IMG/VR virus record: IMGVR_UViG_3300045971_000528
Coordinates: 1 to 64,000 of that record
Reading direction: 5' to 3' (one strand)
Length of the DNA: 64,000 bases
Origin: a virus
Under the pieces are notes generated by a model, which did not search any database, had not been told where the DNA came from, and saw only the letters and a list, made by a program, of their open reading frames with translations. The stretch's first letter is position 1. Each line of letters opens with the position of its first letter. Shown one piece after another: positions 777-23,549 of the stretch. The position numbers were made by a program, and so were the translations under genes.

Positions 777-1445
777 ATGAAGTGTTTTCACGGATGTGGC
801 CAACAGGCGTTGTTCTTTGCGCCAACGCTGTCCCGACGAGAGAAGGCGGACGTGTGGGTCTGTGCTCGCAGAGCAGCGCAATGCCCAACCAAGATGGGGC
901 AGATCAGACAGAAGCGGTTAGACACGCTGGCTGAAGTCGATGCTGATGGTGTTGATGGCTTCACGCGCAATGCACTCGCAGTGTCTGCCTCACGTCGCCA
1001 AGAGGACGGTACTTTCAACGGTGCAGAGAAGATGGTTCAAACCAAGCGATCAACGAAAGACGCCGATGGACGTGACATCTACCAACAGACCGCCATCAAG
1101 ACCGCCATCACTCGCTTTGGTCAATACGCTGGACTGGAGGGCATGCCCGAGTTCGAGATCTACCGCTACCACGTCAAGCGCATCACCGAACAACAACCCC
1201 TGCATCTTCTTCCTAAGCATGAGAAAAGGGCCGCCTACGGTAAAGCAGACGACCCCCATCAGGTAGATCACAAATTCTCAGTGGTGCAGGGCTTCTTGAA
1301 GAACATTCCGCCCTACATCATTGGTCACATCTCCAACTTGGAGATGCTTCCATCACGCCTGAACAACTCGAAAGGGTCGTCCTGTTCGATCACGGAAGAA
1401 GCTCTGCTCGAGGGCTTCTTCTCATCGATCAGAGTTGCGCAATGA
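777..1445 (+). CDS. Putative freestanding HNH-type endonuclease
   Basis: C-terminal HQVDHKFS...GHISNLEMLPSRLNNSKG motif; N-terminal Cys cluster; TAAATA late-promoter motif at 746-751; only convincing plus-strand gene in the window. Confidence 0.6.
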   Translation: MKCFHGCGQQALFFAPTLSRREKADVWVCARRAAQCPTKMGQIRQKRLDTLAEVDADGVDGFTRNALAVSASRRQEDGTFNGAEKMVQTKRSTKDADGRDIYQQTAIKTAITRFGQYAGLEGMPEFEIYRYHVKRITEQQPLHLLPKHEKRAAYGKADDPHQVDHKFSVVQGFLKNIPPYIIGHISNLEMLPSRLNNSKGSSCSITEEALLEGFFSSIRVAQ

Positions 1446-3036
1446 GTTGCGGAGCGGCAGAGTCGAAACCTGCGATGTCCAACATTCCGGCATCCTTCGG
1501 ATCCGCGATGGTGAACTCGCTCACAGACGTTCCAATGACAATCGACTTCGCCATCGGGTTGAGCTTCTTCCGGTAATCGCGAAGCGCTTCCACCGGCTGG
1601 ATCGAACCGGCCCAAGTTTCGTTGTCGGTCAGAACAACGAACTTGTCCACCTTCATGCCGTGCTGGGAAGCATGCATCATCGGCAGAGCGCAGTCAGTGC
1701 CGCCCCACGAGAAGCGCTGCATCACCTTCAGAACCGCGTCGAGACGCATGTTCGGCGTGATCTTCAGCTCGCCCATCTTGGTGTTGAAACCACCGATCCA
1801 GTAGTTCGGCTGGTTCTTCACGACCGCGAGGGCCATGACACCAGCAACTTCTGCAGCGGTCAGGTTCGGGGAACCGTTGACGTGTGCACCAAACATGGAA
1901 CCAGAGCAGTCCACACCCACCAGGTACGAGTCATCCGTCTTCTCTTGCGTGGCAAAGGAAGCGTAGAACGCATCGTTGATGGCGTCGAGAACGCGTTGAT
2001 CAGCCTTCCAGGTCAGGGAACCCTTCTCGCCGTGACCAACGCTGTATTGCTTGAACGCCTGCAGGAGCGTGATCGGGTGGACACGCTGCTTGCGCAGGGA
2101 CTCCACGTCGCTTAGCTTCGCGATGACGTTCTTCGTACCAGCCGACAGCGGTGCGATCACGCCGTGGGCCGTCAGGGCACCCAGCTTGCGGATCGTTGCC
2201 GTCAGGCCCATGTTCACCACGAGGGCGGACAGGACATCGGCATCCTTCAGGAACTGGGTCGGAACCATTTCCCACGTGAGGTTGGAGTTGCCCTCAACCA
2301 GACGCAGAACGGTCTTCTTGTCCTCGGCACGCTTCAGGTACTCGAAGTCGACCAGCAGCTGCGGCACAGCTGCGCCTTCCGGCAGTTCACCCTTGACCGC
2401 GTAGCGGAACAGGTTCGACTGCACTTCAGACGACGGCTTCACGTGCGCCAGACGGAGCACGTCACGGTGAGCCCAGCCGTCACGCGACTGGTACTTCAGA
2501 AGCTGGAGAGCCAGCTTGTCCATTTCCTTCGACGTGTACCACTTGGCAACGCCACGCTTTGCAGCCGCGTTCCACTTGCCCATCGAGTCGAGGATCGACA
2601 CGAACATGAACAGCCAGGTGCCAGTACGAGCGATGCGTGGCAGCGCGTCGTAGGCAGCTTGCTTGGTCTCGTCGTTGCCGAACACCGCTGCGAGAGCGAT
2701 GGCCACAACAGCCGGGTCGTTCTTCGGCGCACGGCCAGCGAGCGAGTACTCGAGGGCACGGTTCACCACACGGACACCGTCAGCGGCAATGCACGCCTTC
2801 ACGGTGTTGAACGACATCTTGGTCGTGTCCTTCTTGCCGACGTAGTAGCCGGCCGACTCGGAACCCAGCGTCAGGAAGCGGTCGAGCACGCCCCACTGGT
2901 CGAGGGTGAAGGTGACACCACCTGCGTTGTTGGTCTTCATGTCAGCTTCGCGGCCCGGGATGGCACGGGACTGTGGCGTAACCGACTTGGTCGGCGACAG
3001 GGAAGCTGCGTGGGAAGTGTAGGTGTTTGCTGCCAT
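1429..3036 (-). CDS. rsr: Ro60/Rsr TROVE-domain RNA-binding protein with C-terminal vWA domain
   Basis: NNAGG..F..D....LDRFLTLGSE, KYQSRDGWAHRDVLRLAH, VDCSGSM (MIDAS), GGTDCALP, TDNETW, IADPKDAGMLDIAGFDSAAP; SD AAGGAG upstream. Confidence 0.95.
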   Translation of the reverse strand: MAANTYTSHAASLSPTKSVTPQSRAIPGREADMKTNNAGGVTFTLDQWGVLDRFLTLGSESAGYYVGKKDTTKMSFNTVKACIAADGVRVVNRALEYSLAGRAPKNDPAVVAIALAAVFGNDETKQAAYDALPRIARTGTWLFMFVSILDSMGKWNAAAKRGVAKWYTSKEMDKLALQLLKYQSRDGWAHRDVLRLAHVKPSSEVQSNLFRYAVKGELPEGAAVPQLLVDFEYLKRAEDKKTVLRLVEGNSNLTWEMVPTQFLKDADVLSALVVNMGLTATIRKLGALTAHGVIAPLSAGTKNVIAKLSDVESLRKQRVHPITLLQAFKQYSVGHGEKGSLTWKADQRVLDAINDAFYASFATQEKTDDSYLVGVDCSGSMFGAHVNGSPNLTAAEVAGVMALAVVKNQPNYWIGGFNTKMGELKITPNMRLDAVLKVMQRFSWGGTDCALPMMHASQHGMKVDKFVVLTDNETWAGSIQPVEALRDYRKKLNPMAKSIVIGTSVSEFTIADPKDAGMLDIAGFDSAAPQLIAQL

Positions 3037-3089
3037 GATGTTTCTCTCCTTTGGAATGACGGCTATCACTTGATAGCGAATGATCAAAA

Positions 3090-3386
3090 TCAACCTGTAC
3101 GACGAAAAGCGGGATCGGAGATTTCGGTCGCTACGTCGCAATGACGCGCTTCCTACACCCGTCTTGAGGCGACGAGTAACCTACCGGATTACGACCCCGG
3201 AAACATCACGCAGATTCGACGCGTAATCCCTACCTCCATGATTCGACATGGACACCTACTTCTGTGGTTCGGCACAGATACCTACTCTGCTTGTCCGGCT
3301 TGCTTTCCAACTTGCGATGGGGCACAGAGCTTCGAAGTTACAGTAGTTCGATTGTGGTAACCAATACCAACGGTCGAACAGGTTGA
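3090..3386 (-). ncRNA. Long (~300 nt) Y-RNA-like RNA with internal hairpin/GUAGG array
   Basis: 5' UCAACCUGUUCGAC-C-G pairs with 3' CGUCGUACAGGUUGA; UUGGUUACC motif; lies directly upstream of rsr. Confidence 0.7.
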
Positions 3387-3416
3387 AGTTGATTGAAATA
3401 CTGAGGGCTGACGACT

Positions 3417-3571
3417 GAATGAAAGGTCTGACAAAGAGTGGGACGGAGATTGAAGACATCACCAGGTCTTGCATTCTGTTTGTACCCTTTCGGGTAGCGA
3501 TTTGCTTCCGTTGGCTTTCGCCGTCAGTAGCTCCATGAGTAGATAACCATCGCCGATCGGTCAGATCATTC
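3417..3571 (-). ncRNA. Y RNA (Ro60-binding)
   Basis: 5' UCUGAC-C-GA pairs with 3' UUGUCAGA (bulged-C helix), followed by UGGUUAUC; adjacent to rsr. Confidence 0.8.
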
Positions 3572-3617
3572 GTTTGCGTTGAAGATCACGTGTGTGAAGT
3601 TTCCAACGCATGTAGCT

Positions 3618-3646
3618 ATTTTATACGGTTTTCGCGCTGGGTGCAA
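3618..3646 (-). promoter_or_regulatory. Sigma70-type promoter for the Y RNA-rsr unit
   Basis: TTGCAC-N17-TAAAAT on the minus strand. Confidence 0.65.
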
Positions 3647-3654
3647 CTTTTTCA

Positions 3655-4191
3655 TCAACTTTGCGCAGGTTGAATGCGCTTGTAGATCATGCCGTTCAGG
3701 TGGGCGTAACCCTCTTCATCAGGAATGATGACATGATTAGCCAAGTCGCGCTCAGCAATCCTATCATACACAAACCGGGTGACGGTATCCCCGGCTTTCA
3801 GGTCGATCCAATCGAACATGTCCTGATCCATGTAGCGCCCGAATGGCGGGTCTGAGAAGTCGACGAGCTCGGCCTCTTGAACACCAGCAGCGTCGAGCAA
3901 CTTCTGATGATCGTCCAGCGACATCGTCTCTCCCATTCGGGCAGACAGTGCCTCGCGGCCCTTCTCACGCAACCCGTCTCTGATCTCGTTGTAATCCCAT
4001 GCCACTGCACAGATCAAAGCTGCCGTGTAGAGCGAGCCGTAGTAGGTGACAACTGACAACCCAATGTAGGCAAGCCACCAGGGCCATGAACAATGGTAGA
4101 GAACGAGACTTCCACCAATCACAGTGCAAGCACCCCAAATGGATCGAGTGCGTTCAACTACATTGCCAACCTTGTCATCGAATGTTGTCAT
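3655..4191 (-). CDS. Hypothetical membrane protein
   Basis: Two N-terminal hydrophobic segments; tight packing with neighbours. Confidence 0.7.
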   Translation of the reverse strand: MTTFDDKVGNVVERTRSIWGACTVIGGSLVLYHCSWPWWLAYIGLSVVTYYGSLYTAALICAVAWDYNEIRDGLREKGREALSARMGETMSLDDHQKLLDAAGVQEAELVDFSDPPFGRYMDQDMFDWIDLKAGDTVTRFVYDRIAERDLANHVIIPDEEGYAHLNGMIYKRIQPAQS

Positions 4192-4192
4192 G

Positions 4193-23115: not shown

Positions 23116-23122
23116 TTTGTTC

Positions 23123-23198
23123 TGGCCCGACCTGTTGGTTTCGATCCAACCTCTCCGCGTTTTCAGCGCAGCGCTTTCACCAGATTAGCTAAAGCCGG
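23123..23198 (-). tRNA. tRNA-Phe(GAA)
   Basis: CUGCG-CU GAA AA-CGCGG. Confidence 0.9.
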
Positions 23199-23204
23199 TT
23201 TGTT

Positions 23205-23279
23205 TGGCACCGTGTACGAGAATCGAACTCGTTTTCCCGCGCTGAGAACGCAGTTTCCTATCCAGTAGAAGAACACGGT
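23205..23279 (-). tRNA. tRNA-Glu(CUC)
   Basis: CUGCG-UU CUC AG-CGCGG, GCCA end. Confidence 0.85.
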
Positions 23280-23285
23280 ATTATT

Positions 23286-23361
23286 TGGTGCGTCGCCAGG
23301 GACTTGAACCCTGACATGTCTCCTTAAGAGGGAGGTACTCTGCCACTCGAGTTCGCAACGC
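23286..23361 (-). tRNA. tRNA-Lys(CUU), second copy
   Basis: CUCC-CU CUU AA-GGAG, ACCA end. Confidence 0.85.
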
Positions 23362-23368
23362 ATTGTAT

Positions 23369-23457
23369 TGGCAGAGGAGGTAGGACTCGAACCTACAAGG
23401 TCATTACAACCGTCTGCTTCAAAGGCAGATGCGTCTACGCGATTTCGCCACTCCCCT
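23369..23457 (-). tRNA. tRNA-Gln(UUG) anticodon on a Leu/Ser-like class II body
   Basis: UCUGC-CU UUG AA-GCAGA; D arm GCGAAAU..GUAGACGC; V-arm GGUU-GUAAU-GACC; G73. Confidence 0.8.
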
Positions 23458-23466
23458 ATAATTCAA

Positions 23467-23549
23467 AGACAACAAGTGGAAGGAACGGGTAGCCTTTCGG
23501 CAAATCAGATTTATGGTCAGATGAGATAACCATTCCAGTTCGGTTGTCT
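23467..23549 (-). ncRNA. Y RNA (83 nt)
   Basis: AGACAAC-C-GA / UUGUUGUCU, GGAAUGG/CCGUUCC upper stem, UGGUUAUC. Confidence 0.8.

Follow-up and report, generated by a model that had tools for sequence, protein, structure and literature searches.

What does a phage do with a Ro60 protein, and which RNAs does it bind? Ro60 and its Y RNAs have been described in animals, in some bacteria and in a small number of phages, and the role of their ribonucleoprotein in prokaryotes is unclear. The question is raised by the first 64 kb (the window, positions 1 to 64,000) of the 106-kb viral contig IMGVR_UViG_3300045971_000528 from IMG/VR, where a Ro60 gene and six RNA elements, here called E1 to E6, are encoded on the minus strand, two of the elements directly upstream of Ro60 and four among tRNA genes. 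CheckV estimates the completeness of the contig at 29%, and at its length of 106 kb it is thus a fragment of a giant phage genome. We find that the six elements belong to a larger family with one common structural handle and differing cargos, that the stems of this handle covary between phages and between bacterial phyla, and that the handle accompanies Ro60 genes well beyond this phage. The elements are probably Y RNAs, partners of the phage's own Ro60.

Results

A common handle in twelve RNAs of one contig

An original prediction, made by reading the sequence alone, had described six minus-strand elements of 77 to 297 nt sharing the motif CCG and GGUUAYC. All six were recovered at their predicted positions and with this size range (Table 1), and in each of them CCG is followed, after 8-13 nt, by GGUUAYC. 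The narrower form CCG-N9-GGTTATC occurs four times in the window, as against 0.03 expected from shuffled sequences. Six is nevertheless too small a number for the family, since at least 12 copies are present in the contig. When both strands of all 106 kb were scanned with a relaxed pattern, 12 copies were found on the minus strand and none on the plus strand (13 raw matches, two of them overlapping). All 12 lie on the Ro60 strand, six inside the window and six beyond it, the latter starting near contig positions 64305, 64533, 68686, 72300, 74157 and 74344.

The handle is built of two stems. Its lower stem has at least 6-7 bp and an invariant C-G closure, which is followed by an unpaired C and then a G. 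In the middle, a few 5´ linker bases stand opposite a longer 3´ linker ending in (CAC)UYUUU, so that the 3´ strand of the handle terminates with UUU-G. The upper stem has 7-9 bp, its top pairs being formed by the GG of GGUUAUC with CC, and UUAUC starts the loop or the cargo above it. For a count of copies with a matching 3´ strand, the heptamer whose last base is the first C of CCG was compared with the downstream complement starting with G after the U-run. In ten of the 12 copies a U-rich run is present downstream, followed by G and by a complement to at least 6 of the 7 positions of the 5´ flank, compared with 2.9% of control positions. Both exceptions are accounted for: the partner strand of E1 is more distant (it was found in the alignment of orthologs), and E3 is permuted, with its partner upstream.

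Copies in the contig range from 60 to 297 nt, with cargo from none (60-63 nt) to about 230 nt. E1, the longest, has a lower stem of about 13 bp, CG, the upper stem GGUAUUGG/CCGAUCCC and UUACC, followed by about 230 nt of structured cargo that is kept among phages and matched no Rfam family. E2 shows the C-G stem closure, the bulged C, then a G-C and an A-U pair facing a bulge of UUU, an upper stem ending with GG:CC, and UUAUC. In E6 all seven positions pair both in the lower stem and in the upper stem (GGAAUGG/CCGUUCC), and its 3´ strand is CACUUG. None of E1, E2 and E4-E6 has tRNA arms. The earlier statement that the distal modules are unrelated to each other is roughly right, with the reservation that E3 carries a tRNA body, that E4 has a paralog at contig positions 74050-74163, and that four copies beyond the window contain a T-arm-like GUUCGA. 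One further copy, at contig positions 64182-64311, has the handle at its ends and, between them, D, anticodon-like and T arms arranged as in a normal tRNA (19 bits with the tRNA model).

Table 1. Positions of the Ro60 gene, the handle RNAs and associated features in the window.
Feature	Position	Strand	Basis
Ro60 orthologue (TROVE + Ro60 vWA), 535 amino acids	1429..3036	-	Pfam, PDB matches
Small hairpin separating E1 from the ribosome-binding site of Ro60	3062..3077	-	read from sequence
E1, 297-nt Y-like RNA	3090..3386	-	fold z=-2.4; ten-orthologue alignment
E2, 155-nt Y-like RNA	3417..3571	-	nine-orthologue alignment
TATAAAATAG box directly 5´ of E2	3616..3625	-	kept in most close relatives
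Array of 26 tRNA genes holding E3-E6, homing-endonuclease open reading frames (ORFs) and small ORFs	17476..23732	-	ARAGORN, Rfam, Pfam
E3, tRNA-shaped RNA with permuted handle	18239..18363	-	Rfam tRNA 37 bits, 56-nt insert
E4, 114-nt Y-like RNA between small ORF and tRNA-Lys	18620..18733	-	paralog, orthologue, match to model R1
E5, 77-nt Y-like RNA, spacer N13	22029..22105	-	4 nt from each flanking tRNA (Val, Glu)
E6, 83-nt Y-like RNA between tRNA-Asn and tRNA-Gln	23467..23549	-	stems, match to model R1
Promoter, leader ORF and terminator ahead of the first tRNA (Trp)	23899..24215	-	sequence, fold z=-4.8

Covariation among related phages

Ro60 was found at 61-90% identity in twelve IMG/VR contigs; a megablast search of the Ro60 region against the phage collection gave no match. 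In most of those contigs that extend upstream, an E2-type and then an E1-type RNA precede Ro60, always in this order, and in closer relatives the TATAAAATAG box comes first, ahead of both RNAs. Nine E2-type orthologues yielded 14 consensus pairs in RNAalifold, eight of them with compensatory changes. Their consensus has the closing C-G pair in nine of nine sequences, the unpaired C, the G-C pair in seven of nine and the A-U pair (one G-U) in eight of nine, opposite UUU. For the E1 type (ten orthologues), 13 of the 18 consensus pairs show compensatory changes. Both stems of the handle carry compensatory changes. Covariation of the lower stems among homologues, on which the original prediction had made itself depend, is present in the E1-type and E2-type sets alike, and also in the bacterial minimal RNAs described below.

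In five related records the strict pattern has 16 matches, all of them on the Ro60 strand, and a control pattern has two. Orthologues of E4, E5 and E6 in related phages again sit between tRNAs, a few bases from the tRNA ends: that of E4 in locus L080, those of E5 in loci L075, L078 and L080. The E6 orthologue in L081 carries a compensatory change in the outermost pair.

A tRNA-shaped RNA with a permuted handle

E3 possesses an acceptor stem with CCA end, a D arm and a T arm, and the handle stands in place of the anticodon arm. It is there in circular permutation: upper-stem 3´ strand, U-run, lower-stem 3´ strand, loop, lower-stem 5´ strand, CG, upper-stem 5´ strand and GGUUAUC. ARAGORN does not call this RNA, and with its anticodon arm swapped for the handle insert it is not an ordinary member of the tRNA family (RF00005).

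The same construct was identified in four related phages, and E3-like "tRNAs" of 105-143 nt (detected by Rfam) at about a dozen bacterial Ro60 loci. An RNAalifold run on the E3 type gave a spurious handle pairing; pairs were counted instead on the structure named above. Over 17 sequences (5 phage, 12 bacterial), 86.7% of cells are paired, as against 71% in shuffles, none of 500 reaching the observed value. Sliding the partners by 1-3 columns lets the proportion fall to 37-52%. Two-sided changes were seen at seven of eight upper-stem pairs and three of four lower-stem pairs.

The handle accompanies Ro60 in bacteria

Scanning a Ro60 alignment against GTDB species genomes gave 80 loci, 78 of them bacterial. 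These 78 loci have 39-45% identity and come from Chloroflexota, Myxococcota, Verrucomicrobiota, Abditibacteriota, Planctomycetota and others. An unpublished genome (G011, locus L086) is one of the 78 loci and one of five whole-genome scans described below; no claim depends on it. The handle motif is present on the Ro60 strand at 69 of the 78 loci, in 209 copies as against 10 on the opposite strand; 44 loci have at least three handles, the maximum being eight. Its usual bacterial form, GGGC-CG-AAG...GGGUUAUC...ACUUGCCC, includes the published GNCGAAN0-1G.

All 598 tRNA genes counted within about 3 kb of Ro60 at the same 78 loci (L084-L161) are on the Ro60 strand, and 28 loci have at least ten. 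The association between Ro60 and tRNA arrays across bacterial phyla is strong. Handles are also found at Ro60 loci without any tRNA, such as L118 with eight copies, which indicates that the handle tracks Ro60 and not tRNAs. In the five whole genomes of 7-10 Mb, a 13-base handle pattern clusters only at the Ro60 locus. The background of this pattern is about 0.4 matches per genome, so that clustering is informative and mere presence is not. In one verrucomicrobial class, seven of 201 genomes have a TROVE gene; only two of the 201 have at least two pattern matches within 1 kb, and in both these matches are directly upstream of the TROVE gene.

Aligning paralogs of mixed length with MAFFT left the 3´ strands of the upper stem unaligned, and a covariance model, R1, was therefore built from 26 bacterial minimal RNAs of similar length (61-73 nt) and from no phage sequence. 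In this set 85% of cells are paired, and the covariation score is 0.56 compared with 0.20 in shuffles. R1 was run without filters over 76 kb of the phage contig. The top four matches are all phage handle copies: 74289-74352 (E=5e-4), 64475-64541 (E=1.4e-3), E6 (E=0.09) and 74048-74165 (E=0.22). E4 (18617-18736) follows at rank 6 with E=1.2, E5 is matched partially, and E1, E2 and the permuted E3 were missed in this 76-kb search. Long cargo depresses the scores of the model.

Ro60 gene and its putative transcription unit

The protein contains the domains PF05731 (85 bits) and PF25045 (180 bits), and its best PDB matches are 2nvo (Rsr of D. radiodurans, E=7e-102), 9nen (human, 3e-96) and 1yvp (Xenopus, 2e-90), the similarity spanning residues 57-567. 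With a TROVE HEAT-repeat ring, a C-terminal vWA domain and full-length likeness to the solved Ro60s, it belongs to the Ro60/Rsr (TROVE) family. The gene had been assigned to 1429-3141; its existence stands, its TTG start at 3141 does not. The true start is ATG at 3036, with an AAGGAG box ahead of it, and the resulting length of 535 amino acids is like that of the homologues (about 535 amino acids).

E2, E1, a small hairpin and Ro60 all lie downstream of the TATAAAATAG box with no terminator-like site in between, and the box is a candidate phage promoter for this unit. A hairpin of 5-7 bp is found at the matching site in L012, L014, L018, L019 and L022, with the form GCUGUC-N3-GACAGC in the closest relatives; it may be a site of processing or autoregulation.

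RNA-repair or effector genes were sought near Ro60 in the window and none was found; the neighbours are an HNH endonuclease, a NUDIX protein, a saccharopine-dehydrogenase-like protein, a BLUF protein and a collagen-like protein. An HNH_5 gene lies at 4971-5657 (minus strand), 1.4 kb upstream of E2, and HNH_5 genes stand directly 3´ of Ro60 in three Chloroflexota loci (L102, L136, L090). Among ten ORFs downstream of Ro60 at nine bacterial loci, HNH_5 or Band_7 proteins are encoded, and RtcB and PNPase are not among the products. Unusual cargo for a phage is present on the minus strand as well: a protein with F5/8 type C (discoidin) domain and PEP-CTERM tail (132-719), one with a BLUF blue-light sensor domain (8088-8516) and a collagen-repeat protein with BclA-like C-terminal domain (10935-12134).

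tRNA array and its leader

The first tRNA of the array is preceded by a sigma-70-like promoter (24173-24200), an ORF of 40 codons (23963-24085) and a strong terminator with a 14-bp hairpin (23907-23938). An 11-nt stretch at the end of the leader ORF is able to pair with the left arm of the terminator. Leader and terminator are kept in three of four related phages (L075, L078, L080), the peptides being of W-Q-Q...R-F-E type, and the whole looks like a conserved attenuator. No strong minus-strand terminator was found inside the array. Together with the leader and terminator ahead of it, this makes it plausible, judging from the sequence, that E3-E6 are co-transcribed with the tRNAs under control of the leader.

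GIY-YIG and DUF559 endonuclease ORFs interrupt the array at 20616-21548 and 22175-22834 (minus strand, Pfam), and two small Tyr/Gly/Pro-rich ORFs (e.g. YGYPYPQY) lie between its tRNAs at 19950-20370 (minus strand). Several gaps (17552-17620, 18451-18533, 19047-19160, 21447-21505, 21597-21771 and 22845-22959, all minus strand) contain tRNA-like pieces with acceptor-like stems, CCA or T arms. They have no ARAGORN call and no handle, and may represent unusual tRNAs or mimics of another sort. Beyond the window, at 65-75 kb of the contig, 28 further tRNAs make up a second array.

Discussion

In phages and bacteria alike, the handle RNAs form one family with a common structure, covarying stems and genomic linkage to Ro60. 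We consider it probable (about 0.72) that the elements in the contig are Y RNAs of the phage and partners of its own Ro60, one handle being joined to differing cargos; the Y RNA interpretation of the original prediction is thus supported. Binding by Ro60, release by tRNA processing, an adaptor role of the cargo and co-induction with the tRNAs are what we infer from the anatomy of these RNAs and from knowledge of the family in animals, bacteria and the Thermus phage phiLo.

E2 and E1 would be made from a dedicated unit just ahead of Ro60. E4-E6 would be cut from the array transcript, probably as RNase P and the enzymes of 3´ tRNA processing trim the tRNAs on either side, and E3, tRNA-shaped and with a CCA end, may be processed like a tRNA. 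Ro60 is expected to bind the handle on its outer surface, while the cargo, often tRNA-like, could tether or gate the ring toward partners (PNPase, tRNA-handling enzymes) or substrates. During infection, one Ro60 might in this way serve to control RNA quality or to protect the tRNA pool.

Several observations weigh against Y RNAs of Ro60. Rfam was searched at the gathering threshold and at E<=10 with the window, with sub-regions and with the 12 excised copies, the last being a search space of 1.7 kb. In the Infernal search suggested along with the original prediction, neither Y_RNA (RF00019) nor YrlA (RF02553) matched any of the 12 copies even at E<=10, and so no copy reaches the gathering threshold of the vertebrate Y_RNA model or that of YrlA (69 bits). 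The only YrlA matches in the contig (at most 27 bits) fall on ordinary tRNA pairs. R1 scores of the copies with long cargo are not significant (E 0.09-8). Only some phage copies contain the AA of CGAA, a dinucleotide that is important for binding in phiLo. E3-E6 are 15-20 kb away from Ro60, and the common handle is their only link to it. Finally, no conserved effector adjoins Ro60, as judged from the window and from ten ORFs downstream of Ro60 at nine bacterial loci.

The handle RNAs could be real and yet serve a different partner, for instance as punctuation for the processing of tRNA arrays (guides for RNase E, III or P), Ro60 being a mere neighbour. Most copies do lie 4-10 nt from tRNA ends, and the tRNA arrays at many bacterial Ro60 loci are strictly on the same strand. 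We nonetheless find this unlikely, because handles are present at Ro60 loci devoid of tRNAs, because their clusters in whole genomes coincide with Ro60 and not with tRNA clusters elsewhere, and because the handle matches the experimentally defined Ro60 site of vertebrates. About equally improbable is that E1 and E2 are mainly a cis-acting structured 5´ leader of the Ro60 mRNA, used for autoregulation by Ro60, and not free adaptors. Such a leader would agree with the arrangement of E2, E1, hairpin and ribosome-binding site behind one conserved promoter-like box with no terminator between them. The handle also occurs, however, far from Ro60 and between tRNAs, and Y RNAs of Salmonella that are transcribed together with rsr are released as free RNAs (PMC4201824, PMC7790460); a leader function is, moreover, compatible with these elements being Y RNAs.

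The array elements might also be decayed or intron-bearing tRNA genes without function, the motif being inherited junk. E3 indeed scores as a tRNA with a long insert, and the array holds other odd tRNA-like pieces. This explanation is already disfavoured, and we regard it as very improbable: handle stems covary between phages and between phyla, the spacing of the motif is fixed while the stems change, E4-E6 are devoid of tRNA arms, and the insert of E3, conserved in 17 sequences, takes the place of the entire anticodon arm.

If the elements are Y RNAs of Ro60, one phage can carry a dozen of them, with a single handle and many cargos. Most of their genes are placed within tRNA arrays, and one RNA combines a tRNA body with the handle in permuted form. 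In Chloroflexota, Myxococcota, Verrucomicrobiota and other phyla Ro60 is accompanied by this handle, often together with tRNA arrays on its strand, and yet the handle is missed by the Rfam YrlA and Y_RNA models. It offers a simple descriptor for annotating many overlooked Y RNAs. The findings further provide a testable link of Ro60 to tRNA supply or damage, consistent with the control of rsr-yrl-rtc in Salmonella (PMC7790460).

A wider conjecture, which we put forward tentatively and think rather less probable than its opposite, is that Ro60 and handle-tagged RNAs are a general guard of the tRNA pool in giant phages and in tRNA-array islands of many bacterial phyla. Y RNAs that are tRNA-shaped or encoded in arrays would bring Ro60, together with PNPase or repair enzymes, to damaged tRNAs, or would act as decoys of anticodon nucleases. 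Were this true, the phage system would be a counter-defence against host immunity that cleaves tRNAs, and the near-identity of the handle to metazoan Y RNAs would reflect one ancient ribonucleoprotein design, with UUAUC as a part of Ro60 recognition.

Comparison with known Y RNAs

The kind of system described here is known. The phage RNAs differ in being missed by the Y_RNA and YrlA models of Rfam, in their number (at least 12, mostly in arrays) and in the permuted form on a tRNA scaffold. Our literature search, which did not extend to the reviews of the Wolin laboratory, found no link of tRNA arrays with Ro60 or Y RNAs.

The vertebrate Ro60 site consists of a 7-bp helix in which a C is bulged on one strand and 3 nt on the other; the motif UUAUC is conserved in the loops of Y RNAs and of nematode stem-bulge RNAs (sbRNAs) (PMC4726728). 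The terminal helix of the E2 type has the same composition, with C-G closure, bulged C and opposite UUU, and its lower stem covaries. Human Y4 reads ...GGUC-CG-N9-GGUUAUC ... AAAUUU-GACU... (PMC5648034) and has the layout and spacing of the phage handle, exactly CCG-N9-GGUUAUC with UUU before the closing G. Vertebrate Y RNAs and sbRNAs differ from the phage RNAs in the sequences of their lower stems, in the lack of an RF00019 match on the phage side and in their Pol III context, which is absent in the phage; unlike them, the phage copies would share a transcript with tRNAs or with Ro60. Four bacterial relatives of 65 nt (L101:561-630, L149:2120-2183, L098:1094-1163 and L147:2748-2817) exceed the gathering threshold of the nematode stem-bulge family RF01656. 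These matches are cross-kingdom, and automatic annotation would mislabel the bacterial RNAs.

Bacterial YrlA carries GNCGAAN0-1G close to its 5´ end and, at nt 22-25, a conserved YUAY; it imitates tRNA and has been reported from phages (Chen et al. 2014, PMC4201824). The phage RNAs resemble YrlA and YrlB in being encoded with Ro60 (E2 and E1 directly upstream of it), in a 5´ motif of a comparable kind within a terminal helix, to which the phage copies conform in part, in frequent tRNA-imitating cargo and in the presence of several Y RNAs per genome. CG is invariant in the phage copies, and UUAU(C) has the expected spacing in every one of them; the flanking G and AA are confined to some phage copies (E6 and the L018 and L019 orthologues), but most bacterial copies have them and read GCCGAAG. 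The tRNA-like order of YrlA (T arm, closed acceptor stem-loop, D arm, with the ends at the Ro60 site) is not seen, and the YrlA model, run on 20 bacterial loci, likewise finds none of the copies there. Most phage copies, in contrast to YrlA, lie inside tRNA arrays and not beside Ro60, with at least 12 per genome fragment, and E3 has the reverse topology, being open at the acceptor stem with its CCA end while the handle is sealed by a loop. In Salmonella, the rsr-yrl-rtc operon is under the control of tRNA fragments (PMC7790460).

The closest parallel in a phage is phiLo, whose Ro60 binds two upstream Y-like RNAs, Yrl1 and Yrl2, and the host PNPase (PMC12135203). In both phages, the Ro60 gene is preceded by two Y-like RNAs of stem-bulge-stem structure with a CG(AA) motif (PMC12135203). 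The two Ro60s are only distantly related (E=1e-5), and neither array copies nor a tRNA-scaffold form were described from phiLo.

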